Positions 404 to 12,078 of a stretch of 12,078 bases of DNA are shown one piece after another. The position numbers and the translations under genes were made by a program. How positions within the stretch are numbered: the stretch's first letter is position 1; each line of letters starts with the position of its first letter. Below the pieces are notes generated by a model. That model was not told where the DNA came from, made no database searches, and worked only from the letters and a program-made list of their open reading frames with translations. Source of the DNA: a virus (lineage: Duplodnaviria; Heunggongvirae; Uroviricota; Caudoviricetes); IMG/VR virus record IMGVR_UViG_2537562220_000015; one strand, written 5' to 3'.

Positions 404-494
404 GGCATTACCCCCGACAGATCACAAAGCAGACTGGAATGATTACCACCAAAAACACGGCATTAAATGCGCCACAGAAGCGTTCAATAAGTCA

Positions 495-2267
495 ATGTAC
501 CAACCACAGGGTAATGGCGTGAAACAGGAGCCACAGACCATTGAGGGAAGCGATTTTAAGGTTATGGATACCGACCCACTGAAACCAAGAATAGAAAGCC
601 GCGAGGATGGTATTTATTGGGTATCTCCGAGAGCTGACAGCCAGAGTGGAGAAATCATCAATAACGAAAGCTGGTTATGTTCTCCGTTAAGCGTTATCGG
701 TACTGGCAGAGACGATAAAGACCAGTATCTCATTCTTCGCTGGCTGTCGTTTGGTTCTGAAACGCCGACAACCGCTGCCATTCCACTGGCTGATATTGGT
801 GAACGTGAAGGATGGCGCACACTTAAAGCTGGTGGGGTAAATGTCACGACCAAAAGCAGCCTCAGAGCAATACTGGCAGACTGGCTACAACGCAGTGGCT
901 CTCGTGAATTGTGGCGTGTTGCTCATGCCACTGGCTGGCAATGCGGAGCGTACATCATGCCTGATGGGGAAATCATCGGAACACCTGAAAATCCTGTGCT
1001 GTTCAGCGGGAGAAGCTCAGCCGCAGCCGGATATACCGTCTCAGGGAGCGCGAAAAGCTGGCGTGATAACGTGGCGCGTCTGGCCTTTGGTAACTATTCA
1101 ATGATGACCGGGATCGGCGCAGCACTGGCAGCGCCATTGATTGGGCTGGTGGGCGCTGACGGGTTCGGCATTCATTTCTATGAGCAGTCGAGCGCAGGTA
1201 AGACCACCACGGCAAACGTGGCGAGCAGCTTATACGGCAACCCTGATTTACTGCGGCTGACGTGGTACGGAACCGCGCTGGGGCTGGCAAATGAGGCCGC
1301 CGCCCACAATGACGGACTAATGCCGCTTGATGAAGTTGGTCAGGGCGCTGATCCTGTCAGCGTTTCACAGTCTGCCTATGCGTTATTTAACGGTGTAGGG
1401 AAACTGCAAGGCGCTAAAGATGGTGGAAACCGGGATCTAAAACGCTGGCGTACAGTGGCAATCAGCACCGGAGAAATGGATTTAGAAACATTTATCGCTA
1501 CTTCCGGGCGAAAAACCAAAGCCGGGCAACTGGTGCGACTGCTGAATATTCCGTTGAGTAAAGCAGTACGCTTTCACGATTACCAGAACGGAAAACAGCA
1601 CGCAGACGCACTGAAAGACGCTTACCAGCATCACCACGGCGCGTCCGGGCGTGAGTGGATTAAATGGCTGGCACACCACCAGCAACAGGCTATTAAAACC
1701 GTTCGTGATTGCGAAAGCAGATGGAGAAGCCTGATCCCATCCGATTATGGTGAGCAGGTTCACCGTGTAGCCGCGCGATTTGCCATTCTGGAGGCCGCAT
1801 TGTTGTTAGGCGAGGTTGTAACAGGCTGGGATGCTCAGACATGCCGTGATGCGATACAGCACAGCTATAACGCATGGTTGCGCGAGTTCGGCACAGGTAA
1901 CAAAGAGCATCAGCAGATTATTGAACAAACGGAGGCATTTCTTAATGCCTATGGGCTTAGCCGTTTTGCACCATTTCCATACAGCCCGGCAGATTTGCCC
2001 ATCAAAGATTTAGCCGGATACCGTCAGCGTGGAGAACATGACGAAAGCCCAATGATTTTCTACACATTCCCGGCCACATTTGAAAAGGAGATCGCATGTG
2101 GTTTCAACGCAAAACAGTTTGCTGAAGTGTTGAAAAAAGCCGGGATGCTAACCCCACCAAACAGCGGTCGTGGATACCAAAGAAAATCACCACGTATTCA
2201 GGGACGACAAATAAACGTTTATGTACTCAATTACCAGCCAGGAGATTATAACTCATCTGAAGAATGA
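495..2267 (+). CDS. Replicative primase/helicase-like protein (phage P4 alpha-like / satellite Pri-Rep type), probably the 3' portion of an IS186-interrupted gene
   Basis: 590-aa ORF with a Walker A-like P-loop (GIHFYEQSSAGKTT) about 225 residues in, then a long C-terminal region as expected for a DNA-binding/origin-recognition domain. The frame is open with no stop from the IS186 end (404) to the ATG at 495. No convincing SD precedes the ATG. Confidence 0.6.
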   Translation: MYQPQGNGVKQEPQTIEGSDFKVMDTDPLKPRIESREDGIYWVSPRADSQSGEIINNESWLCSPLSVIGTGRDDKDQYLILRWLSFGSETPTTAAIPLADIGEREGWRTLKAGGVNVTTKSSLRAILADWLQRSGSRELWRVAHATGWQCGAYIMPDGEIIGTPENPVLFSGRSSAAAGYTVSGSAKSWRDNVARLAFGNYSMMTGIGAALAAPLIGLVGADGFGIHFYEQSSAGKTTTANVASSLYGNPDLLRLTWYGTALGLANEAAAHNDGLMPLDEVGQGADPVSVSQSAYALFNGVGKLQGAKDGGNRDLKRWRTVAISTGEMDLETFIATSGRKTKAGQLVRLLNIPLSKAVRFHDYQNGKQHADALKDAYQHHHGASGREWIKWLAHHQQQAIKTVRDCESRWRSLIPSDYGEQVHRVAARFAILEAALLLGEVVTGWDAQTCRDAIQHSYNAWLREFGTGNKEHQQIIEQTEAFLNAYGLSRFAPFPYSPADLPIKDLAGYRQRGEHDESPMIFYTFPATFEKEIACGFNAKQFAEVLKKAGMLTPPNSGRGYQRKSPRIQGRQINVYVLNYQPGDYNSSEE

Positions 2268-2285
2268 GCTTCTTCATGTGCGTAG

Positions 2286-2403
2286 AAAAGGTGTTGGTTC
2301 AGTTGGTTCAGTTGGTTCAATTTGTAAAGTGTATTGTTTTATAAGGATTTTATTCTTTTTATTGAACCAACACTGAACCAACAACACGGTATTTTGAACC
2401 AAC
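2286..2403. repeat. Iteron cluster 1: three tandem 9-bp GTTGGTTCA repeats (2293-2319), AT-rich spacer, three inverted TGAACCAAC copies (2363-2371, 2374-2382, 2395-2403); candidate origin/operator
   Basis: Direct reading of the sequence. It sits immediately downstream of the primase/helicase gene, the position where satellite and plasmid replicons commonly place an iteron origin. Confidence 0.7.
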
Positions 2404-2723
2404 ACAATGTGACTGAATTGATGCGCACAACACCTGGCTGGCATCAGAGAGTGTTTTACGAGACTTTCGTAAAATCCTGTGTACAAGGGCGTGACGTTTT
2501 TGAAAGTGAGCACTACGAAATTTTCGTAGTTCAAAAAACAGCCTCTGAGAAGTTGTTATGCCTGTTCAGCAAACCATCCGCATAGCTGATCGCGAATCAA
2601 ATTACCAATGGAGCCAGAAGCAAGGGCAGAACTGAAAAGCGCCTGCCGTGAAGAGTAATGCGACACCATAAATATAGTTTTTAGAGTCCATAAAAAACCT
2701 GTCAAAACCTGACACACAGAACG

Positions 2724-2757
2724 ATGCCACCAGCTACTGAGCGGTGGCATTTTTTTG
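2724..2757 (+). terminator. Rho-independent terminator
   Basis: Perfect 8-bp stem ATGCCACC/GGTGGCAT (2724-2731 and 2743-2750) with an 11-nt loop, followed by TTTTTTT (2751-2757). It is oriented for plus-strand transcripts. Confidence 0.6.
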
Positions 2758-2851
2758 TGCTATTTGTTTCATATTTTGCAATTACTATGATGAATATTGC
2801 GATTTGTGAAACTATAATAACTGTTGTTTTATACAGTTCTAAGGGGGCGTT

Positions 2852-3013
2852 ATGGCTATTTCAGTAAAGCCGGTATTGATAAGTGAGAAGCAAATGGAAG
2901 CGATAAAGAAAATTCAGGAAGAGCAGCGTAAAAAATCAGGAATTGGAGTAGCGCCAACTCTGCATGAAATTGCACGAGGGTTAATAGATAAGGCGCTGGC
3001 AGGCTGTATGTGA
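2852..3013 (+). CDS. Small hypothetical protein (53 aa), possibly a ribbon-helix-helix-like DNA-binding protein; first gene of the downstream operon
   Basis: ATG at 2852 is preceded by a strong SD (AAGGGGG, 2841-2847) at ~5-nt spacing; stop TGA at 3011-3013. It translates to MAISVKPVLISEKQMEAIKKIQEEQRKKSGIGVAPTLHEIARGLIDKALAGCM. It is absent from the ORF track, presumably because it is short. An AT-rich promoter-like region lies upstream (2760-2840). Confidence 0.4.
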   Translation: MAISVKPVLISEKQMEAIKKIQEEQRKKSGIGVAPTLHEIARGLIDKALAGCM

Positions 3014-3029
3014 AAATGGATGGCATCGC

Positions 3030-3491
3030 ATGGAACTAAAATTTATTGATAACCCTGTGCGATTACAGGCCTTTCTTAACGATCCTGGCAATACCGAAAA
3101 TATTGTTGAGCCGGGGCACACGTACTACATCAAGCCTGATGCGGTATATCTCGGCATCTACGAAGGATTGGTGTTGGCTGGCGTTCATGAAGTGCGTAAC
3201 TTCTGGCATAGCATTGTTGAATGCCATGCGGTGTACGACCCCGGATTCCGTGGTGAATATGCACTGCAAGGGCATCGGTTATTCTGCAAATGGCTTCTCG
3301 AAAACTCACCATTCCTTAACAGCATTACCATGGTTCCTGACACCACCAAATACGGACGGGCAATTATCCGTTTGCTTGGCGCTACCCGTGTTGGTCACCT
3401 TGATGATGCTTATATCAGATGTGGTAAACCCGTCGGCGTAACGCTTTATCAGTTAACTCGGCAACAATATAAGGAATTCAGCGAATGTTAA
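3030..3491 (+). CDS. Phage head-assembly/ejection-associated protein, P22 gp14-like (tentative)
   Basis: 153-aa ORF 16 nt after the small ORF. Its stop overlaps the start of the next gene. The assignment rests mainly on its position directly upstream of the gp7/gp20/gp16-like trio, which matches the P22 gene order 14-7-20-16. Confidence 0.5.
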   Translation: MELKFIDNPVRLQAFLNDPGNTENIVEPGHTYYIKPDAVYLGIYEGLVLAGVHEVRNFWHSIVECHAVYDPGFRGEYALQGHRLFCKWLLENSPFLNSITMVPDTTKYGRAIIRLLGATRVGHLDDAYIRCGKPVGVTLYQLTRQQYKEFSEC

Positions 3492-4162
3492 TTACCCACA
3501 TAGCTCATAAACATCTCAATCGTGCCGTATACGAAAAAGGCGGTGATGGTGGTGCCTCTAAAGCTCAGGCGAAGGCCCAGCAGCAGGCAATTGATTTGCA
3601 GCGCGAGCAGTGGAATACGGTGATGAATAATCTCAAGCCGTATGCAGAAGTCGGATTGCCTGCTTTACAACAACTACAAGGACTGATGACTCTGGAAGGG
3701 CAGAATAAAGCCGCGAATGATTTCTTTGGTTCTGGTTTATATAAAACACAGGCAGATCAGGCCCGTTATCAGAACCTTGTCTCAGCAGAAGCTACCGGGG
3801 GGCTTGGCTCAACAGCTACCAGTAACCAGTTATCTTCCATTGCGCCCATGCTTTATAACAATTGGCTTAGTGGGCAAATGCAAAATTATGGAAACCTGCT
3901 AAATGTCGGGATGAATGCGGCATCAGGGCAGGCAACAGCAGGGCAAAACTACGCCAATAATACCGGGCAACTCTTGCAGGGGCTTGGCGCTATTCGAGCA
4001 GGTCAGGCGCAGCAGCCATCCAGTCTTGCGCGTGGTATTGGTGGGGCGGCATCAGGCGCTTTAGCGGGTGCGCAACTTGGTTCCGTTGTTCCGGGTATAG
4101 GTAATGTCGCCGGGGCTATTGGTGGTGGGCTTATTGGTCTTGTTGGGGGGCTTGGATTCTAA
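3485..4162 (+). CDS. Phage ejection (DNA transfer/injection) protein, P22 gp7-like
   Basis: 225 aa, close to the size I recall for P22 gp7 (~229 aa). Gln/Ala-rich N-terminal part and Gly-rich hydrophobic C-terminus (GIGNVAGAIGGGLIGLVGGLGF). The stop overlaps the next start (TAATG). Confidence 0.65.
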   Translation: MLITHIAHKHLNRAVYEKGGDGGASKAQAKAQQQAIDLQREQWNTVMNNLKPYAEVGLPALQQLQGLMTLEGQNKAANDFFGSGLYKTQADQARYQNLVSAEATGGLGSTATSNQLSSIAPMLYNNWLSGQMQNYGNLLNVGMNAASGQATAGQNYANNTGQLLQGLGAIRAGQAQQPSSLARGIGGAASGALAGAQLGSVVPGIGNVAGAIGGGLIGLVGGLGF

Positions 4163-5583
4163 TGGCGACATGGCAACTTGGCGGGCTGCCTAGCATGGCA
4201 CCGCAAAATGATAATGCTCCTCGTTCTTCCGTTCCTCAGCCTGTGCAGTATCAGCAGCAGCCAAACGTAGGTTTAATGGCGCTACAGGGGCTAAGAGGCG
4301 TTGCTGAGATTAATCAGCAGGCACGTCAACAACAGCGTAAAGCAGAGTTTCAGAAAGCATATGCCGGGGCTTTTGAGTCTGGAGACAGAAACAAAATGCG
4401 CAGTCTTATTTCTGAGTATCCAGAAGAATTTGAAAGCGTTCAGAAAGGGATGGGCTTTATTGATGACGACCAGAGAAATTCTATTGGTCATCTTGCGACT
4501 AGTGCTCAAATCGCATCTTCGCTCGGAACTGGGGCATTTGGAAAATTCATAGCAGATAACGAAGATGAAATGCGTCGCTTGGGAATTTCTCCTGAGTCTG
4601 TTGCCGAAATGCATGTTAATGATCCACAGGGATTCCAGCGGCTTGCTGGTAGTATGGCACTGTTTTCTCTCGGTCATGAGAAGTATTTCGATATCAAAGA
4701 TCAAATGGAAGGTCGGGATATTGAGCGTGGCAAGTTGGCAGAAACAATCCGCAGCAATCAGGCTGGCGAAGCACTTCAGGCGAGAGGGCAGGATATTAGC
4801 CGAGCAAATGCGTTAACGTCAGCATATGCACCAACAGCAGCAATGCAGAATTACAATCAGTACGCTCAAATGTTAAAGGAGGATCCAGAGGGGGCGGCGG
4901 CATTTGCGGCAGCGGCTGGAATTAATACAAACGCCAAAAAATTAATGAGTGTTAGAGAAAACGATGATGGCACTGTCACAAAATACTACACAGACGGAAG
5001 TGAAGAGCAGGGAAAACTAACCCAGCCAATATCTGGAGATGGGTTTCGTCCAATAGCTTTGCCAACAGCCCAAAAGATCATGGAAAAGTCGCCAGAAGGG
5101 GCTAAAAAAGCTGCTGGATTTGCATACAGGGTTAGGGATGCTCTTGATTCAATAGATACACTGAAAGACCAGCTTAGCCCACAGCGAGTGGCGATCATTA
5201 ATAATGCTTTGGGTAATGGGACGTTGGCTAACTTAACGCTCAGCCCAACAGAGCAGCAATACGTTGTTAATGCTAATGACGCAATAATGGCAATACTCCG
5301 TCAGGAAACAGGGGCAGCTATCGTACCTGCTGAAATGTCAAAATATTATCAAATGTATTTCCCTCAGCCTGGCGACTCCACAAAAACCATTGATACCAAG
5401 CGCCTGAAGATGGAAAACCAGTTCAATTCGCTGAAAGCTGCTTCTGGTCGAGCTTATGATGCTTTGCGGGTTATTTCAGCAGTTGACAGAGGAACTTCTT
5501 CTTCGTCGCAGACATTGCCGCAATCTGAGCAGGTATCACAGCCAGCAGCCAGCAGTAACTTTTCTTCACTATGGGGTGATTAA
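4162..5583 (+). CDS. Phage ejection (DNA transfer) protein, P22 gp20-like
   Basis: 473 aa, close to the size I recall for P22 gp20 (~471 aa). Translationally coupled at both ends (TAATG overlaps at 4160-4164 and 5581-5585). Codon usage matches its neighbours. Confidence 0.65.
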   Translation: MATWQLGGLPSMAPQNDNAPRSSVPQPVQYQQQPNVGLMALQGLRGVAEINQQARQQQRKAEFQKAYAGAFESGDRNKMRSLISEYPEEFESVQKGMGFIDDDQRNSIGHLATSAQIASSLGTGAFGKFIADNEDEMRRLGISPESVAEMHVNDPQGFQRLAGSMALFSLGHEKYFDIKDQMEGRDIERGKLAETIRSNQAGEALQARGQDISRANALTSAYAPTAAMQNYNQYAQMLKEDPEGAAAFAAAAGINTNAKKLMSVRENDDGTVTKYYTDGSEEQGKLTQPISGDGFRPIALPTAQKIMEKSPEGAKKAAGFAYRVRDALDSIDTLKDQLSPQRVAIINNALGNGTLANLTLSPTEQQYVVNANDAIMAILRQETGAAIVPAEMSKYYQMYFPQPGDSTKTIDTKRLKMENQFNSLKAASGRAYDALRVISAVDRGTSSSSQTLPQSEQVSQPAASSNFSSLWGD

Positions 5584-7688
5584 TGGCTAAAGCATGGAAA
5601 GATGTTATCGCCTCTCCACAGTATCAGGCGTTAGCACCAGAACAAAAAGCGCAGGCTCAGGAGCAATACTTCAATGAAGTCGTTGCCCCGCAAGCCGGAG
5701 AAAGTGTAGAGCAGGCTAAGCAGGCTTTTTATGCTGCCTATCCACTACCATCAACGAATGAAATAGACCGAGCCCAATCAGCAACTCAAAATATTCAACA
5801 TACATCATCTGATAATTCTCTTGCGTCAGGGTATGCAAAGTTAGCTACTCAGCAAAGAGAGGGGCTTGAGCGTTCAGCAGAACAGGGAGCCAGCCTTGGG
5901 GCTGCGATGCGCGATGCTATAACAGGCGAAAGCCGAATGACTCCAGAGATGGAGAGACTGCAAAATGTCGACCTTGCCCCAGAGTTAACCTCACTCAGCA
6001 TGGATGCTCTAAAAGCTCGATGGTCTCAACTTTTCGGCTCTGACGCATCTCAGGAAAAGATTCTTCAGAGCATGGGAGCGAAATTAAGGCAGGATGAGAA
6101 GGGTAACACTATCGTTTCCCTGCCATCCGGTGATTATGCTCTGAACAAGCCGGGTTTATCGCCGCAAGACGTGGCATCGTTTCTGGCTAATGCGCTGGCG
6201 TTTACACCAGCGGGCAGGGCCGGAACGGTGCTGGGGGCCATAGGGAAATCAGCAGCTACAGATTTAGCACTACAGGGAGCCACCAGCCTCGCTGGTGGAG
6301 AAGATATTGATCCGTTACAAACGGTAATTTCTGCTGGCATTGGTGGTATTGGTAAGGGGCTGGAAAATACAGCGAGTGCGGTTTCGAGGGCTGTTCGTGG
6401 TGATATGTCGCCTGAAGCAAAGGCTGCTGTCGACTTTGCATCGGAAAGAAATCTGCCGTTAATGACCAGTGACATGCTGAAAGATAAAACCTTTATGCAG
6501 AGTCAGGCTCAGACATTAGGCGAAAGAGTTCCTTTTTTTGGAACCGGTAAGAATCGGCTGAATCAACAACAAGCACGAGAAAATTTAGTCAGAACATTTA
6601 GCGATGGTCTGGGTGGCATTTCTGATAAACAGCTTTATGAATCTGCGACTAAAGGGCAACAAAAATTCATTGAGGCAGCAGGAAAGCGATATAACCGCAT
6701 AATTGACGCTATGGGGGATACCCCTGTCGATCTCTCAAACACGGTAAAAGCTATCGACAATCAGATTGCTGTGTTAAGCCGCCCGGGTAAATCTCAGGAT
6801 AGAGCCGCGGTAAAAGTCTTGCAGCAATTTAAAGACGATATCACCAGCGGACCAAATGACCTGCGTCTGGCGAGGGAAAACAGAACCGATCTTCGAAAGC
6901 GGTTTATGGCGTCATCTGACACTGTTGATAAAGATACGCTCCAGAAAGCCAGCGATATTATCTACAAGGCATATACGGCGGATATGAAAAAAGCCGTAGC
7001 CAAAAATCTTGGAGCAGACGAAGCCATTAATATGGCAAGGGTTGATCGCTCATGGTCTAAATTCAATGACATGATGGGAAGAACGCGCGTTCAAAAGGCA
7101 ATAGCCAGCGGCAAGGCCACGCCTGAGGATGTAACAAAACTCGTTTTTAGCCAAAGCCCATCAGAACGTTCTCAGCTTTACAGGCTTCTGGATGACAATG
7201 GTAGGCAAAACGCACGAGCAGCCATAGTTCAGAATGCTGTAGATAAGGCGACTGATCCGTCTGGAAATATCAGTGTTGAGAAGTTTATTAATGCGTTACA
7301 CCGGAACAGGAAGCAATCAGCAACTTTCTTTAAAGGCGTACATGGAAAGGAACTGGACGGCGTTATTAAATACCTCAACGATACAAGACACGCGGCAAAA
7401 GCGAACGTTCAAAACTTAAATGGTCAGCAGCTTTATGGATTGTTAGTTGGTGGTGGCATCATAAACGCAGCAGTATTAGCGGGGATGCTAAAAACGGCTG
7501 CGTTTGTTGTTCCTGCTGCTGGTGCCGTAGGCGGAGCAGCGAAGGCATACGAAAGCCCTGTTATACGAAATGCCTTGTTACGTCTGGCAAATACGCCAAA
7601 AGGTAGCACAGCATATGACAGAGCGATCAGTACGGTCACACAATCGCTCACCAGAGTCGCACAGGCATCACAAAAAGAAGCTCAATAA
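5583..7688 (+). CDS. Phage ejection (DNA transfer) protein, P22 gp16-like
   Basis: 701-aa ORF, last of the coupled gene set. It has a Gly/Ala-rich hydrophobic segment near the C-terminus (LLVGGGIINAAVLAGMLKTAAFVVPAAGAVGGAAKA). Its position after the gp7/gp20-like genes matches the P22 order. Confidence 0.65.
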   Translation: MAKAWKDVIASPQYQALAPEQKAQAQEQYFNEVVAPQAGESVEQAKQAFYAAYPLPSTNEIDRAQSATQNIQHTSSDNSLASGYAKLATQQREGLERSAEQGASLGAAMRDAITGESRMTPEMERLQNVDLAPELTSLSMDALKARWSQLFGSDASQEKILQSMGAKLRQDEKGNTIVSLPSGDYALNKPGLSPQDVASFLANALAFTPAGRAGTVLGAIGKSAATDLALQGATSLAGGEDIDPLQTVISAGIGGIGKGLENTASAVSRAVRGDMSPEAKAAVDFASERNLPLMTSDMLKDKTFMQSQAQTLGERVPFFGTGKNRLNQQQARENLVRTFSDGLGGISDKQLYESATKGQQKFIEAAGKRYNRIIDAMGDTPVDLSNTVKAIDNQIAVLSRPGKSQDRAAVKVLQQFKDDITSGPNDLRLARENRTDLRKRFMASSDTVDKDTLQKASDIIYKAYTADMKKAVAKNLGADEAINMARVDRSWSKFNDMMGRTRVQKAIASGKATPEDVTKLVFSQSPSERSQLYRLLDDNGRQNARAAIVQNAVDKATDPSGNISVEKFINALHRNRKQSATFFKGVHGKELDGVIKYLNDTRHAAKANVQNLNGQQLYGLLVGGGIINAAVLAGMLKTAAFVVPAAGAVGGAAKAYESPVIRNALLRLANTPKGSTAYDRAISTVTQSLTRVAQASQKEAQ

Positions 7689-7706
7689 CTGGTAGCCATG
7701 GATGGC

Positions 7707-8321
7707 TTAGATATCTCTGCTGTCTCCATTAGGAAATAAAAGATAATATGGATTTGCCTTTCTTGCTCTCCTTGCTTCACCTGGATACCTGTTAGTCAGT
7801 AGTTTGCATAATGAGCAGAGAACAACACTCAAGAAAATTCCGAATGAGAAGATCAATATCTCACCAAAAATCAATGGCGATATTAAATTTTCAGGATTTA
7901 ATGATAAGTCAATGTTAAAAACATATTGAGCAATACCAGTAAGTATCAATAATATAATCCCTATGGAATACATTGCTGTTTCCCAAACATCAGACAGTCT
8001 ATTTTTGAATTGTTCGCTGGAGTAGTAGTTTGTTATAAAGTCAGAAAAATCACTCTCATATGCATCATCTTTAGGTGATGTTAGAAATCCTCTGTCTCTC
8101 CATACCTTCTCCCAATTAGTCGATTCTTTTTTTAAGGAAAAATAAATATGTATTGCCAAAAGGATAGCCAAAATTGGTGTTAGCTCTAAAAAATAGAATG
8201 TTATGGAATAAATAATACTGCCATGTTCAAACTCATCTGGGACTATCATGTATGCACAAAAATAAATTGAAAAGTACACCATGCAGATAGTTAGCAATTC
8301 TTTAGTATCTTTTCTGCTCAC
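7707..8321 (-). CDS. AT-rich multi-pass inner-membrane protein; candidate superinfection-exclusion or abortive-infection effector
   Basis: 204-aa ORF with a GTG start at 8319-8321 preceded by a strong SD (AAAGGGGG on the coding strand, ~5-nt spacer). It has at least four hydrophobic helices and a ~70-residue charged loop. GC content is clearly lower than the flanking genes (roughly one third by eye versus about half). It is convergent with the ejection operon, 18 bp from its stop. Confidence 0.6.
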   Translation of the reverse strand: MSRKDTKELLTICMVYFSIYFCAYMIVPDEFEHGSIIYSITFYFLELTPILAILLAIHIYFSLKKESTNWEKVWRDRGFLTSPKDDAYESDFSDFITNYYSSEQFKNRLSDVWETAMYSIGIILLILTGIAQYVFNIDLSLNPENLISPLIFGEILIFSFGIFLSVVLCSLCKLLTNRYPGEARRARKANPYYLLFPNGDSRDI

Positions 8322-8538
8322 ACCAACCCCCTTTAGCGTTGTTTAGAATGGCAATCATCATATATCCAAGACATGGCATTTGGTACATAGCTTGGGTCGG
8401 GATTTCAAATCCGATCCCCGTTGATGGGGCCGTTACAGTACGCGCATATCCGCTTTATGTGAAACAGGAAGATTTTTCTGATATCACTGCCACAGCAAAA
8501 CACCAATTTCGTGACCAGTACGCGCGCGAGGGGTATCA

Positions 8539-8557
8539 GTTGCAAAAATTTTGCAAC
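8539..8557. promoter_or_regulatory. Near-perfect palindrome GTTGCAAAA-A-TTTTGCAAC (9-bp arms around one central base); candidate operator
   Basis: Read directly from the sequence. It is flanked on both sides by copies of the GACCAGTACGC(G/A)C(G/A)CG motif (8513-8528 and 8565-8580). Confidence 0.3.
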
Positions 8558-9066
8558 TACGTCCGACCAGTACGCACACGATGGCGGGGGATACCATGAA
8601 ACTGTTCTCTACACGAGACAGAGTGGTGGTGATGTGTTGATTATCGGCGTATATGCGCACAGGACGCGCTATGACGATGTTTTATGCGGGTACACCAATC
8701 ACATGTATCTGATGTGATAAATCGTGTTACATGACATCTCATGTTGTGCTGGTGGTTATCACGACGTTCTGAATCTGGCCTTTGCCTGATATTTTGCGAC
8801 AAGTACGCGCGCGTAGCATCGAAATTATCGGATGGCGTATGCTGCTGGCAATATGAAGACCGATAGTATTAACCGAAAAGCGATTAAGGAGTGCCAACTT
8901 TTCAGTAGAGAAACTAGCCAGCATAGGAAAATGTAGAAATTACCCAATTAATAGGTAAAAGTTATTGACACAGCCTGTAGTGGATAACGATATGAATAAA
9001 AACCACATATAGTGGTTTTTCGTGAGTGATGATAGTATCTATGTTAGTTTCCTAAGTAACTGTGCA

Positions 9067-9095
9067 TTGACATGTGGATAACTTCGGATAGAGTT
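9067..9095 (+). promoter_or_regulatory. Putative sigma70 promoter for the Abi_2 gene (TTGACA-N16/17-TAGAGT) with an embedded DnaA-box-like TGTGGATAA
   Basis: TTGACA at 9067-9072 and TAGAGT-like -10 around 9089-9095. TGTGGATAA (9073-9081) is the exact complement of the DnaA box consensus TTATNCACA. A similar TTGACA...GTGGATAAC module recurs at 8965-8988. Confidence 0.25.
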
Positions 9096-9190
9096 ACAGG
9101 CAACCGAGCCCGATCCTCTGTTTCTCCGCCGCCGATTTTAGGCATGTGAGTTTCACGGTCGGGCCTTTTATTATCTTTTGTTTCGCCACT

Positions 9191-10168
9191 ATGATTGCCG
9201 CAAAGCCTCATAAGGACTATCACGAATTGCTAGGATTGCTACTTGAACGTGGCATGATTATCAATGATCGAAATCGTGCGATACGTAAGCTGTCGCAGGT
9301 TGGATATTATCGATTGTCAGGTTTTTGGTACCCATCAAGAATTATTGCGACAACAGATAAAGGTCTTTCGTACAGAACAGACCGATTTCTTGCTGGTACC
9401 AGTTTCGAGAAGACGTACGATCTATATCTTTTTGACAAAAAACTGCGTCTTTTGATGATTGATGCTATCGAAAGAATAGAGATTCATGTTCGTTCAGTCA
9501 TCGCGCATGAGGTTGGTCGCAATGATCCACTTGCCTACATGTCATCAAAATACATTAATCCAAAATTCTCATCTGCCTTCGAGCATTGGGTGTATAAGCA
9601 AAAAGTAAAATTAGACGAAAGCAGAGATGACTGTATTGAATGGCATCGAAGCCAAGGCAAGGAGATTCCATTTTGGGTGGCGGTGGAGACCTGGGATTTT
9701 GGTCAGATGTCTAAATATTATGCGATGCTTAATGGTCATATGCATGGGAAAATTATACGTCGTTTTGGCATTGATAATAAGCAGACATTTGCAAAATGGT
9801 TGAAGTGCCTTAATCTCATAAGGAATCGTTGCGCTCACCATTCCAGAATATGGAATAGAAAGCATCCCCGAGTTCCAGTACCGGATAATGAATACTTTGA
9901 CGGACTTAATCTCCATCCAGAGAGTTGCGAGAGGATTTTTAGCGCGATCTGTATTATCTGGTACTTAGTTAAACGACTTGGTCCGGGATCAACATGGCTT
10001 CGGCAAATTGCAGACCTTATTGACTCTAAACCAAATGTTCCCGGATGTGGATATGATTCAATGGGTTTACCTGCTAAAGGATTCCCACGAGAGAGATTCT
10101 CTCAGGACTTAGGTTTTGTTATCGCCGACAACGACCCTGTAGCTGAAGGGCGGAAAGGGAGCGATTGA
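9191..10168 (+). CDS. Abi_2 family (AbiD/AbiF-like) abortive-infection protein with a HEPN-type Rx4H motif
   Basis: Contains NLIRNRCAHHSRIWNRK, the conserved Abi_2/HEPN signature as I recall it (R-x4-H within RNRCAH). The N-terminal region KDYHELLGLLLERGMIINDRNRAIRKLSQVGYYRLSGFWYP matches the AbiD-family N-terminal pattern. I prefer the ATG at 9191 (MIAAKPHKDY...) over the longer track ORF starting at 9146, whose 15 extra residues are hydrophobic and not family-like. Neither start has a clear SD. Confidence 0.7.
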   Translation: MIAAKPHKDYHELLGLLLERGMIINDRNRAIRKLSQVGYYRLSGFWYPSRIIATTDKGLSYRTDRFLAGTSFEKTYDLYLFDKKLRLLMIDAIERIEIHVRSVIAHEVGRNDPLAYMSSKYINPKFSSAFEHWVYKQKVKLDESRDDCIEWHRSQGKEIPFWVAVETWDFGQMSKYYAMLNGHMHGKIIRRFGIDNKQTFAKWLKCLNLIRNRCAHHSRIWNRKHPRVPVPDNEYFDGLNLHPESCERIFSAICIIWYLVKRLGPGSTWLRQIADLIDSKPNVPGCGYDSMGLPAKGFPRERFSQDLGFVIADNDPVAEGRKGSD

Positions 10169-10197
10169 GCGATAAATATCATTTATACACTGATCAA

Positions 10198-10638
10198 TTA
10201 CTGAAGCAGCGTATTGATTCTTTTAATATTGTTACCCTGACGCTTCCACGCGCTGTAAATGTCTTTATCCCACGCTTTACCAGCTTTTGTTTGGTAGCCT
10301 GCTTCATTGAGCCGTTCCGCTATCACACGCCCATTATCAAATCCCTGTCGGATGGTATCGGCAATGATCTTTATAACTGCCGTTTCGTTATATGGCTTTG
10401 GTGGGATGTTCGGCTTTCCGGCAATAAGCGACGCAGCGGCTTTTTCCATGCGCTCCACCAGCCCAAGCATTCGTGAATCAATAGACTTTTCCGGCTGTCC
10501 CAGCTTCATGCGAATCGCATCAACAAGCCAGGAGGTTTTATCCCCTCCAGAAGCGAGAACAGACCGATTAAACTCATCCTGCAATTCAGATGGGATGCGG
10601 AACGCGACCAGATTAGATTTGCTCATTGCAAAGACCAT
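10198..10638 (-). CDS. Ribbon-helix-helix (Arc/Mnt-like) transcriptional regulator with a C-terminal extension
   Basis: The N-terminus LVAFRIPSELQDEFNRSVLASGGDKTSWLVDAIRMKL follows the Arc/Mnt RHH pattern (beta-strand, helix, G-containing turn, helix). The ~90-residue C-terminal extension contains a GYQTKAGKAWDKDIY segment reminiscent of recombinase/regulator DNA-binding modules. It is convergent with the Abi_2 gene (29-bp gap). Confidence 0.6.
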   Translation of the reverse strand: MVFAMSKSNLVAFRIPSELQDEFNRSVLASGGDKTSWLVDAIRMKLGQPEKSIDSRMLGLVERMEKAAASLIAGKPNIPPKPYNETAVIKIIADTIRQGFDNGRVIAERLNEAGYQTKAGKAWDKDIYSAWKRQGNNIKRINTLLQ

Positions 10639-10657
10639 ATCAGTGAGTAATATCCAT

Positions 10658-10687
10658 ACAGTATACCACTGTATAACACTGTTATAC
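10658..10687. promoter_or_regulatory. Three tandem ~10-bp repeats (ACAGTATACC / ACTGTATAAC / ACTGTTATAC) in the promoter region of the RHH gene; candidate autoregulatory operator
   Basis: Read directly from the sequence, 20-50 bp upstream of the RHH start. RHH repressors typically bind tandem or inverted short repeats. Confidence 0.35.
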
Positions 10688-10740
10688 GCTCAAATATCAG
10701 CCAGAAAATAACGGACCAATCACAAAGCTATCGCTGTGTT

Positions 10741-10868
10741 GTTGGTTCAGAGCTGGGCTGTGTTGGTTCAAAATGAGTTGATGTTGGTTCAATATTTCAG
10801 AAAAAACACAATAAAAACAACGATCTTTACAAATTGAACCAACTGAACCAACTGAACCAACACCTTTT
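10741..10868. repeat. Iteron cluster 2: three spaced GTTGGTTCA copies (10741-10749, 10762-10770, 10783-10791), AT-rich spacer, three tandem TGAACCAAC copies (10835-10861). Region 10825-10868 is the exact reverse complement of 2286-2329
   Basis: Direct comparison: the reverse complement of 10825-10868 is aaaaggtgttggttcagttggttcagttggttcaatttgtaaag, identical to 2286-2329 (44/44). The whole cluster is organised as the mirror image of cluster 1. Confidence 0.75.
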
Positions 10869-10897
10869 TGCTTATCTATATAATCTGAGAGGCAGAA

Positions 10898-11185
10898 ATG
10901 ATAAGGGACAGGAAAGCTGAAGAACTGGAGTCAAAAGGGCTATACCGGAGAGCTGCCGCACGATGGGCAGAAGTCATGATGCTGGCAGATGGCGATAAAG
11001 AACGTGAACATGCAGCAAACAGACGCTCTGAATGTATCCGTAAGGCGGCACGCCCACCAGCAACTACAGACAGATTCGGAGATTTAAGACAGGCAGTTAA
11101 GCGGACTCATTCGGCTCTTGGTATGGATGAGGAAGCGAGAGGGTATTTCAGGCGTTATCGCGATAAAGATTGCCAGAGACAGTAA
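10898..11185 (+). CDS. PerC-family transcriptional regulator (PerC/Pch-like)
   Basis: 95-aa ORF with an SD (GAGAGG) 5-8 nt upstream. MIRDRKAEELESKGLYRRAAARWAEVM... resembles the N-terminal signature of PerC/Pch activators of EPEC/EHEC (a conserved ...ELE.KGL(Y/W)RRAA.RW.(E/D)VM motif, from memory). Confidence 0.6.
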   Translation: MIRDRKAEELESKGLYRRAAARWAEVMMLADGDKEREHAANRRSECIRKAARPPATTDRFGDLRQAVKRTHSALGMDEEARGYFRRYRDKDCQRQ

Positions 11186-11258
11186 TGCTCTCTCTGTTTT
11201 GGCAAATTACCCCTCACTTTGAAGGGATCGGAGCTATAAAAATGGTGTTATCCGGCTT

Positions 11259-11276
11259 CCTGCATTGCAGGTTTTC
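11259..11276 (+). terminator. Weak candidate intrinsic terminator downstream of the PerC-like gene
   Basis: Short hairpin CCTGC-att-GCAGG followed by TTTT (11272-11275). The stem is short, so this is tentative. Confidence 0.25.
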
Positions 11277-11667
11277 GAAAGAATCAATGGGTTAGGTTAT
11301 CGTGCAAATTTGCACTCTGCCAGCCAACGCAATTTCTCGTTGGCGGAAATATCAGGTATTTACTGAACGAACGGTCTACCCGCCTGTTCAACTACCAGTT
11401 GTACATGGCTGCTTTATGTGCAAATGGTGGTGAGAGAAAATTGTTTGGGGGTACTTTTGGGGGTATCTCCAAAGATGTAACTGGAAAATGTCTTTATATA
11501 TCAATGTATTTTTATTGTTTGTTTTGTTCCTATTATCGCCATTAAAATCAAAGAGTTACCCCATATTTAAATACACCACGTTTCCTCCTGTGCCGTATTT
11601 GTGCCATTGTAACCTTGGCAATTCATCAAAATACTGTTCTGACATCAGGCAGTGCAGGTGCAGACAT

Positions 11668-12078
11668 TTAAGCCAATTGCTGCCGCCATTCTTTGACGTA
11701 GTCAATCAGGGCGCGGAGCTTTGGTGCAATATTGCGACGCTGTGGGAAATACAGATAGAAGCCCGGAAATTGTGGAAGAAAGTCATCAAGCAGCGATACA
11801 AGCTTACCGCTTTCAATATATGGCCTGAAAGTTTCCTGAGTGGCAATTGTTATTCCTCCGCCGGCAAGAGCCAGCCTCAACATCAGACGCAGATCATTAG
11901 TCGTAATCTGCGGTTCAATCGCAAGGTCGAAAGTTCTCCCGTTTTCTTCAAATGGCCAGCGATAAGGCGCAACCTCCGGGGACTGACGCCAGCCGATACA
12001 CTTATGGGTATTTCCCCCGGAGGCGAGAAAGCGCTCTCCACGCCCGGCCGCAAGGATCAGGACGACGGGGGCAGGCAT
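11668..12078 (-). CDS. LysR-family transcriptional regulator, C-terminal substrate-binding portion (gene starts beyond the window end)
   Basis: ...FDLAIEPQITTNDLRLMLRLALAGGGITIATQETFRPYIESGKLVSLLDDFLPQFPGFYLYFPQRRNIAPKLRALIDYVKEW is a typical LysR C-terminal effector-domain pattern. The Met at the window edge is probably internal. It is likely a chromosomal core gene at the island boundary. Confidence 0.6.
   Translation of the reverse strand: MPAPVVLILAAGRGERFLASGGNTHKCIGWRQSPEVAPYRWPFEENGRTFDLAIEPQITTNDLRLMLRLALAGGGITIATQETFRPYIESGKLVSLLDDFLPQFPGFYLYFPQRRNIAPKLRALIDYVKEWRQQLA

Follow-up and report, generated by a model that had tools for sequence, protein, structure and literature searches.

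The window analysed here, by which we mean the whole stretch of 12,078 nucleotides (nt) held in IMG/VR as the virus record IMGVR_UViG_2537562220_000015, contains an operon of DNA-ejection genes at positions 2852-7688, carried by what its sequence identifies as a phage-inducible chromosomal island (PICI), a satellite of P22-like podoviruses. Analysis of open reading frames (ORFs) finds five intact plus-strand genes in this interval, with zero internal stops and translationally coupled, whose stop and start codons overlap at 3485-3491, 4160-4164 and 5581-5585. The first encodes a leader protein of 53 amino acids (aa), and the other four are homologues of the P22 genes 14, 7, 20 and 16. The gp14 homologue (3030-3491, 153 aa) matches Pfam DUF2824 (7e-62) and by BLASTP is 83% identical to gp14 of the P22-like prophage Kapi1 and 23% identical to that of P22. 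The gp7 homologue (3485-4162, 225 aa; Pfam P22_gp7, PF25688, 2e-72) is 57% and 56% identical to Kapi1 gp7 and P22 gp7, respectively, and retains the EKGG processing-site motif. In the gp20 homologue (4162-5583, 473 aa), which matches Pfam Inj_translocase over residues 34-213 (5e-58), about 210 aa at the N-terminus are conserved and the C-terminal part is mosaic. The last protein, of 701 aa (5583-7688), is a homologue of P22 gp16 and Sf6 gp13: it matches phrog_770, 'DNA transfer protein', over residues 19-700 (2e-161), and BLASTP gives 30% identity to P22 gp16 over 482 aa (7e-52) and 33% to Sf6 gp13 over the full length (9e-96). Hydropathy places a hydrophobic segment at its residues 617-649, and Pfam returned no family for it at E<=0.01. 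Sequence searches of the PDB with gp14, gp7, gp20 and gp16 gave zero matches, as did NCBIfam for all proteins of the module, and Rfam has zero families at gathering score within the window. An earlier, sequence-only reading of this DNA had described five coupled genes with these overlaps and a 53-aa leader, and had named the four others gp14/gp7/gp20/gp16-like; the coordinates agree, and the names are borne out by Pfam, PHROG and BLASTP to the P22 and Sf6 homologues. On this homology, the operon is a complete and intact set of the P22-type ejection proteins (E-proteins) gp14, gp7, gp20 and gp16. In a related E. coli locus (L001, 20180-21995) the RefSeq annotation (PGAP) labels the intact 701-aa gp16 homologue a pseudogene 'missing C-terminus'; the ORF is uninterrupted, and the label apparently arises from a misfit of the C-terminal part to the P22-gp16 family model.

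The four families, their order and the overlapping stop/start junctions are shared with 14-7-20-16-sieA of P22, gp10-13 of Sf6 and Kapi1_055-058. Likewise, as in P22, where sieA lies directly after gene 16 on the opposite strand, a minus-strand gene at 7707-8321 begins 19 nt past the gp16 stop, in the place and orientation of P22 sieA, and encodes a 204-aa membrane protein that had gone unrecognised as SieA in the sequence-only reading. Several lines of evidence identify the product as a distant member of the SieA superinfection-exclusion proteins, namely a PHROG profile (phrog_7745, SieA-like, 4e-4), an hhalign comparison with P22 SieA (94.8% probability, E 5e-8), a motif, the topology and the synteny. 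The motif, NRYPGEARRARK, is a partial match to FxRYPxEAxxFNK in which RYPGEA is kept, and it stands C-terminal to the last transmembrane (TM) segment; among the four predicted TM segments is an extra N-terminal one of the kind described for SieA types B and C in the study that supplied the motif and topology criteria (PMC10883804). A tblastn search with this protein against 50,697 phage genomes returned zero matches at E<=1e-3. It is predicted to fit the role of blocking superinfecting DNA delivery. The upstream side differs from that of P22-like phages: in those phages the ejection block follows the tail genes gp10 and gp26 in the late morphogenetic operon, whereas the operon of the window does not and has its own terminator, promoter, LexA-box match and leader.

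The terminator-like element, an inverted repeat forming an intrinsic hairpin with a T-run (2715-2759, plus strand), divides the replication operon from the ejection operon. The predicted promoter core (2813-2836, plus strand) comprises a perfect -10 hexamer, TATAAT, at 2813-2818 and, 2 nt later, the LexA-box match CTGTTGTTTTATACAG at 2821-2836; a Shine-Dalgarno sequence lies between this match and the leader ATG at 2852, and the promoter is without a good -35 hexamer. The LexA-box core is CTGT-N8-ACAG, a pattern that the window matches only once, where chance would give 0.12 matches. Conservation of the promoter stretch, LexA box included, extends to all the E. coli variants examined and to Leclercia and Serratia, and because the synonymous sites of the adjacent genes are saturated between genera it is meaningful; Klebsiella relatives are without the second LexA half-site. 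The ejection operon is predicted to be under LexA repression and induced by the SOS response. In this it would resemble operon I of the Staphylococcus aureus pathogenicity islands (SaPIs), which also lies downstream of the replication module, has a LexA box over its promoter (in the window operon only predicted) and holds genes acting on helper virion assembly; according to Ubeda et al. (2007), as cited in PMC6092414, operon I is LexA-controlled. The genes found there are terS, cpmAB and pti, unlike the ejection proteins of the window island. Over the -35 region of the leader promoter (2781-2806) lies an imperfect palindrome, TTGCAAT-N13-ATTGC, conserved in all genera, which may serve AlpA or the leader protein as an operator. 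The leader itself (2852-3013, plus strand) is the first gene of a variable 'late' module, and its homologues are restricted to islands of Enterobacterales. It has no Pfam match, and a profile search of the PDB returned only non-significant matches (E about 1). An AlphaFold model shows an extended N-terminus and helices at 12-29 and 37-52 (predicted local distance difference test, pLDDT, 78), and Foldseek matches to this model include the ribbon-helix-helix (RHH) protein ParD with a TM-score of 0.58, all small-protein matches being non-significant (E>3). The leader may be a small DNA-binding regulator, with the RHH fold as a guess.

Upstream of the operon, positions 404-2267 (plus strand) encode the C-terminal two thirds of a PICI primase/replicase (Pfam DUF927, 1.5e-47; phrog_1139, 'DNA primase', 3e-144). 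Directly 3' of its stop, at 2286-2406, three direct copies of GTTGGTTCA, an AT-rich spacer and three inverted copies of TGAACCAAC form a probable replication origin; origins of Gram-negative PICIs are described as two iteron sets around an AT-rich region just 3' of pri-rep (PMC6092414). From position 404 onward (404-12078) the window matches 50 complete E. coli genomes at 99.3-99.8% identity. None of them covers positions 1-403, which are the end of an insertion sequence of the IS4 family, IS421, lying inside the island primase gene and 100% identical to IS421 on hundreds of plasmids. In relatives the intact primase has 918 aa, with TOPRIM and DUF927 domains, and the part present in the window is 99.7% identical to residues 329-918 of the primase of EcCIMP1, the PICI discussed below. 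The insertion thus removes TOPRIM and the N-terminal 328 residues and leaves the ejection operon untouched. With IS421 in its primase gene, the island copy of the window is probably replication-defective and not mobile.

One of the 50 related loci, L001, was inspected in full, and the gene order of the island rests on it. The order begins with a tyrosine integrase, an AlpA-type regulator, a PM1773-family protein, an AntA/B antirepressor, DUF4222, Ash and six small ORFs, continues with the 918-aa TOPRIM+DUF927 primase, the 53-aa gene, gp14, gp7, gp20 and gp16, and ends with SieA (minus strand), AbiD, a 146-aa ORF (minus strand) and PerC, after which come a truncated chromosomal LysR gene and paoDCBA. 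The 10-mer TCCTATTATC occurs 172 nt upstream of the integrase gene of L001 and again just past PerC, delimiting an island of 18.5 kb; in the window it has a single match (0.02 expected by chance), at 11528-11537 on the plus strand, which marks attR, the right end of the island, and it is the attachment (att) core reported for EcCIMP1 (PMC11773190). The features by which PICIs are recognised are therefore present, with the integrase and att repeats bounding 18.5 kb, within the roughly 10-20 kb expected of a PICI, and alpA beside int in L001, and the primase with its iteron origin in the window. Pfam and PHROG detect no capsid, portal, tail or terminase genes in the window, and none of these nor lysis genes are found in the L001 island. 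The sequence-only reading had placed the operon between a replication module and defence-like genes, away from any head or tail gene, and this description stands: the DUF927 primase (495-2267) lies upstream, and the SieA-like gene, AbiD and PerC lie downstream. It had also considered that an intact P22-like morphogenetic module might adjoin the window. This is not the case, the right end being attR followed by chromosome, the left end IS421 within the primase gene, and the L001 island being without morphogenesis genes.

EcCIMP1, described by Pick, Stadel & Raivio (ISME J 2025; PMC11773190; GenBank OR778291), is a PICI of 19,963 bp that lies in tRNA-Thr of E. coli MP1. Experiments showed that its excision and circularisation require the presence and induction of the P22-like prophage Kapi1, as well as its own integrase and AlpA, and that Kapi1 transduces it (PMC11773190). 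It shares with the island described here int, alpA, the PM1773-family gene, antA, DUF4222, ash, the primase, the origin, the leader, gp14, gp7, gp20, gp16, an exclusion gene and PerC, as well as the att core; identity to the window, in addition to that of the primase, is 100% for the leader, 99.3% for gp14 and 99.6% for gp7. Given this published family and a backbone that is 99-100% identical, the window holds a member of the EcCIMP1 satellite family. Its element is, judged by gene content and identity, an EcCIMP1-type PICI and a satellite of P22-like podoviruses, and to this extent the suggestion of the sequence-only reading, that a satellite encodes its own ejection proteins, is upheld; the other part, that they are loaded into helper particles, is something we infer. 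A P4-like satellite was considered and set aside: ash, alpA and a primase are shared with P4, yet the annotation shows neither sid nor psu nor delta, and PICI is the class given to the published relative. Rejected was the assignment of the operon to the prophage remnant left of the L001 island (stfP, tfa, SIR2), the att repeats bounding the island separately.

The two islands are nevertheless not alike throughout. DNA identity between the window and EcCIMP1 is 99% over 404-4322, that is, to 160 nt into gp20, is then lost and is back at 8394. The segment between (4323-8393), comprising most of gp20, all of gp16 and the exclusion gene, is an exchangeable cassette that has been replaced wholesale between them. 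The gp20 of EcCIMP1 is only 48% identical to that of the window, over the N-terminal 188 aa; its gp16 is unrelated, with 906 aa and a lytic transglycosylase domain against 701 aa in the window; and it has a lipoprotein of its own where the window has the SieA homologue. The AbiD cargo and the IS421 in the primase gene belong to the window. In comparison with the island of strain UMNK88, window positions 5811-8822, the gp16 and SieA block, are 98% identical, and the proteins are 98-100% identical for SieA and for gp16 from residue 69 on, while the gp20 genes differ. Which gene comes after gp16 varies: the window and UMNK88 have SieA there, EcCIMP1 a lipoprotein bearing a LAGC lipobox, ETEC6 and E1620 a small polytopic membrane protein, and Serratia a single-pass membrane protein. 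The AT-rich non-coding stretch at 8317-8858 is 95-96% identical among islands with unrelated gp20, gp16 and exclusion genes; it looks like a right-hand homology arm for cassette exchange and probably contains the promoter of the exclusion gene.

In order to judge whether the module is a relic, its occurrence was assessed in 5,426 complete E. coli genomes. The junction of promoter, leader and gp14, diagnostic of the four-gene form, is found at >=80% coverage in 258 of them, and the junction of leader and gp20, diagnostic of a two-gene form with gp20 and gp16 (e.g. UMNK88, ETEC6, E1620), in 214, so that a leader-linked ejection module is present in about 470 genomes (roughly 9%). An island of Leclercia adecarboxylata, with a primase only 68% identical, yet has leader-gp14-gp7-gp20-gp16 at 82-88% identity; Serratia islands have leader-gp20-gp16, and further diverged islands are found in IMG/VR. 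The module keeps a fixed position behind primase, origin and leader in the E. coli, Leclercia and Serratia islands. Between E. coli and Leclercia the ratio of nonsynonymous to synonymous substitution rates (dN/dS) is 0.03 for the leader, 0.06 for gp14, 0.07 for gp7, 0.07 for gp20 and 0.08 for gp16, at a dS of 1-2.5, and is equally low in each quarter of gp20 and gp16 (0.04-0.08 in the C-terminal quarters), which marks strong purifying selection. Of 17 complete island loci, 14 retain every E-protein ORF uninterrupted. As to origin, gp7 was compared across 105 gp7-containing loci from two collections, with a neighbour-joining tree of the 62 unique sequences. Copies in island context are 82-100% identical to that of the window and those in phage context at most about 70%, and island gp7 is monophyletic in the tree. 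Among themselves the island copies of gp7 are at least 84% identical, and to phage-context copies they are no more than 68% identical. The best matches to window gp20 and gp16 reach 53% and 67% among 50,697 phage genomes, and 58% and 67% among 84 P22-like prophage loci. Moreover, gp10, gp26, portal or coat genes lie upstream in 84/84 phage-context loci and in 0/14 island loci.

These data bear directly on the proposal of the sequence-only reading that the operon is a remnant of a P22-like late region, in other words that a piece of such a region was captured with a useful sieA and that its E genes are decaying, functionless hitch-hikers. The order 14-7-20-16-sieA is indeed exactly that of P22, DNA homology to Kapi1 begins exactly at the gp14 start codon, E genes are broken in some copies, and an insertion sequence interrupts the primase gene of the window island. 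However, the dN/dS of 0.03-0.08 at saturated dS between genera, the persistence of the module where unrelated genes replace the exclusion gene, the island-only gp7 clade, the conserved junctions and promoter, and the presence of the module at a fixed position in a satellite family and in about 470 E. coli genomes all speak against it, and we regard it as very improbable, the least likely of the explanations weighed. From its frequency, its breadth, the low dN/dS, the intact ORFs and the separate gp7 lineage it follows that the module has been conserved and selected as part of the island and is not the debris of a prophage.

The function that we favour, to which we give about even odds (roughly 0.5), is that of a virion module timed by the SOS response: the ejection proteins of the island would be loaded into helper procapsids and would deliver island DNA. 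The operon would be silent under LexA, and SOS would turn on both the operon and the resident P22-like helper. Island products would then enter helper procapsids by their conserved N-terminal, scaffold-dependent assembly regions, and particles that afterwards take up island DNA by headful packaging would carry the island's own trans-envelope conduit. The payoff would be freedom from the gp20/gp16 alleles of the helper and entry into lysogens that block the helper's ejection proteins, for example via SieA, P22-like lysogens being presumably the best new hosts for such a satellite. Once integrated, the island would shield its host from P22-like superinfection through its SieA. Published work on P22 is in accordance with several of these steps. 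Complete foreign sets of E-proteins assemble into P22 virions and function there; gp16 and gp20 must share a source in order to work, and gp7 is interchangeable (Leavitt et al.; PMC10883804). The E-proteins enter procapsids through scaffolding protein, gp7 and gp20 by their N-terminal parts (gp20 residues 1-314), and the C-terminal regions of gp20 and gp16 are dispensable for procapsid binding (Leavitt et al. 2021; PMC8402733) and essential after ejection (PMC10883804). Since in the islands these C-terminal regions, dispensable for assembly, are as constrained as the rest, the proteins are more readily seen as working conduit proteins than as decoys. In fact, the minimal island form retains exactly gp20 and gp16, the pair that needs cognate partners. 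The conservation of terminator, perfect -10 hexamer and LexA-box match across three genera supports the proposed timing. A link to exclusion is provided by the SieA homologue directly after gp16 and by the joint swap of gp20, gp16 and exclusion gene; SieA blocks injection via gp16 and gp20, with escape mutations in their C-terminal regions, and the E-protein set of HK620 partly escapes P22 SieA (PMC10883804). As a tentative extension, which we put forward with some reserve, satellites may have domesticated helper ejection proteins in an arms race at the point of DNA entry, swapping alleles together with the exclusion gene and so gaining entry into lysogens that exclude the helper.

The contents of the position behind the leader are pertinent to another explanation. 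Related islands from UMNK88, ETEC6, E1620 and HeN100 (L034, L035, L036 and L037, respectively) occupy a second site, beside dinD; the primase is of the DUF5906 kind in E1620 and of the P4 family in HeN100, yet the leader is the same in both, and in HeN100 it is followed by a 223-aa ORF without ejection genes. In Klebsiella michiganensis, leader homologues stand ahead of a 605-aa protein (L030) or of a set with Terminase_2 and DUF2280 small-terminase-like genes (L032). As the leader precedes such differing contents, it heads an exchangeable slot, and the Klebsiella modules support the view that this slot is the virion or packaging module of the satellite. The authors of the EcCIMP1 study named the genes hypothetical 'DNA transfer/DUF2824-like' proteins and candidate packaging factors, and left their role open (PMC11773190). 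According to this suggestion the proteins would act in packaging or morphogenesis and steer island DNA into helper capsids, and besides the location of the module where PICIs hold packaging genes, and the same leader ahead of small-terminase-like genes in the Klebsiella relative, it could draw on the composition of the island itself. No terminase small subunit is identifiable in the island, and when two island variants were compared by blastn with the complete genome of Kapi1, nothing near terS, where a pac site might lie, matched that could be a pac-site or terS mimic, the only matches being the gp14/gp7 region and a 60-nt stretch in an antirepressor gene. The proteins are, however, full-length homologues of proteins that form the conduit after ejection (PMC10883804), and P22 needs none of gp7, gp20 and gp16 to make DNA-filled particles (PMC8402733). 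We give this explanation little credence.

The finding that the superinfection immunity of Kapi1 lysogens is increased by EcCIMP1 (PMC11773190), together with an envelope-protein gene directly after gp16 in all variants examined, might instead indicate that the ejection proteins, alone or together with SieA, work within the cell that bears the island and jam the conduit of incoming P22-like phages. A repurposing of this kind had been among the options listed in the sequence-only reading. We consider such a cell-resident exclusion improbable: the E-proteins have no signal peptides and are hence cytoplasmic, whereas the conduit forms from outside; a predicted LexA-repressed promoter is ill-suited to a constitutive barrier; P22 SieA alone suffices (PMC10883804); and the immunity phenotype is more plausibly due to the envelope proteins encoded downstream.

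A further alternative arises from the divergence between island and helper. In the EcCIMP1/Kapi1 pair, the island gp20 and gp16 are only 24-26% identical to the alleles of Kapi1, the only known helper, and mismatched gp16/gp20 yields non-infectious P22 particles that still take in the foreign protein (PMC10883804). Mismatched island proteins might therefore flood the procapsids and leave the helper with progeny lacking a working conduit and so limit its spread, as satellite interference or as a population-level defence; the location of the module, at which other PICIs and SaPIs hold interference genes, its apparent SOS control and the defence flavour lent by AbiD and SieA would suit such virion poisoning. 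Nevertheless, the Kapi1 titre after induction is the same with and without EcCIMP1 (PMC11773190), the N-terminal assembly regions would suffice for poisoning yet the C-terminal regions are equally constrained, the cognate gp20+gp16 pair is always retained together, and the island's own transducing particles would be disabled too. We therefore hold poisoning to be unlikely, though it deserves consideration.

Returning to the delivery of island DNA by satellite-supplied ejection proteins, several observations weigh against it as well. That island gp7, gp20 and gp16 enter virions at all is so far an extrapolation from P22, and the ability of these alleles to evade SieA is pure conjecture. E-proteins load before DNA, so that those of the island would be unable to target only island-filled heads and would become mixed with those of the helper; in swaps between P22 and Sf6, gp16/gp20 pairs that did not match failed to function (PMC10883804). 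Transduction of EcCIMP1 by Kapi1 is rare, about 5e3 per ml, and the unchanged titre of Kapi1 counts here too (PMC11773190). The LexA box is a sequence match only, such as occurs somewhere in 11% of shuffled windows. Finally, gp20 or gp16 is broken in 3/17 island copies, and the copy in the window, interrupted by IS421 in its primase gene, is itself probably immobile.

The EcCIMP1-type PICI and the presence of these genes are already published, and the island of the window is a new member of that family. In the literature searched we did not find the recognition of a complete P22-type ejection set with SieA, the two- and four-gene forms, the exchange of the cassette with the exclusion gene, the island-specific lineages, the strong selection, the conserved predicted LexA box or the prevalence of about 9% in E. 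coli. Among the satellites that supply or remodel part of the virion, capsid-forming PICIs (cf-PICIs) contribute capsid and packaging proteins and P4 contributes Sid and Psu; the island of the window differs from both in lacking any annotated capsid, terminase, Sid-like or Psu-like gene. To our knowledge, no cf-PICI or P4 element encodes internal ejection proteins, and although there are satellites known to take over or to provide capsids, packaging specificity and tails, we know of none with its own DNA-injection proteins. If satellites have indeed domesticated helper ejection proteins in such an arms race at DNA entry, this would be the first satellite whose contribution is the machinery of DNA delivery and not capsid, packaging or tail functions. 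Should the proteins travel in helper particles, satellites might bypass injection-level superinfection exclusion, and their diverged gp20/gp16 pairs would be natural material for studying the construction and the blocking of the P22 trans-envelope channel. The module is linked to a SieA-type injection block whose known targets are gp16 and gp20. Such loci are routinely mis-scored as defective prophages, and pseudogene labels are put on intact gp16 genes in them. The main value of the present analysis lies in a sharply testable hypothesis on satellites and injection-level exclusion.

The remaining cargo of the island lies to the right of the SieA homologue. An abortive-infection protein of the AbiD/Abi_2 type (9146-10168, plus strand; Pfam Abi_2 8e-52, PADLOC AbiD 3e-57) is the sole PADLOC match in the window. 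It is followed by a 146-aa ORF (10198-10638, minus strand) with a weak PHROG match only, conserved in several island variants, and by a PerC-family regulator (10898-11185, plus strand; Pfam PerC 3e-33), whose homologue in EcCIMP1 acts as a repressor of LEE, the locus of enterocyte effacement (PMC11773190). Just upstream of perC, at 10755-10868 on the minus strand, lies a second, inverted iteron block, 82% identical to 2286-2406, with three copies of GTTGGTTCA, a spacer and TGAACCAAC repeats. It is also found in other E. coli islands and in Serratia (L028, 9598-9631 and 19097-19130) and not in the Leclercia island; the variable cargo segment is thus bracketed by two inverted clusters of Rep sites. 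In that Leclercia island (L007, 6719-9106), about 2.8 kb with three extra ORFs (152, 157 and 331 aa) stand between origin and leader.

Outside the island, L001 has in its first 7600 positions, left of attL, stfP, a tail fibre assembly gene, an acyltransferase, a GIY-YIG protein and a 936-aa SIR2-family protein, a tandem arrangement in which the end of another element with defence-like cargo adjoins the island attL. At the other side, window positions 11528-12078 are chromosomal DNA, a truncated LysR gene beside paoD, that starts exactly at the att core. The final 554 bases of the record for 'Escherichia phage phi458', labelled there as a tail assembly protein, match this stretch at 99.5% identity, and that record probably ends in the host flank at the same attachment site.

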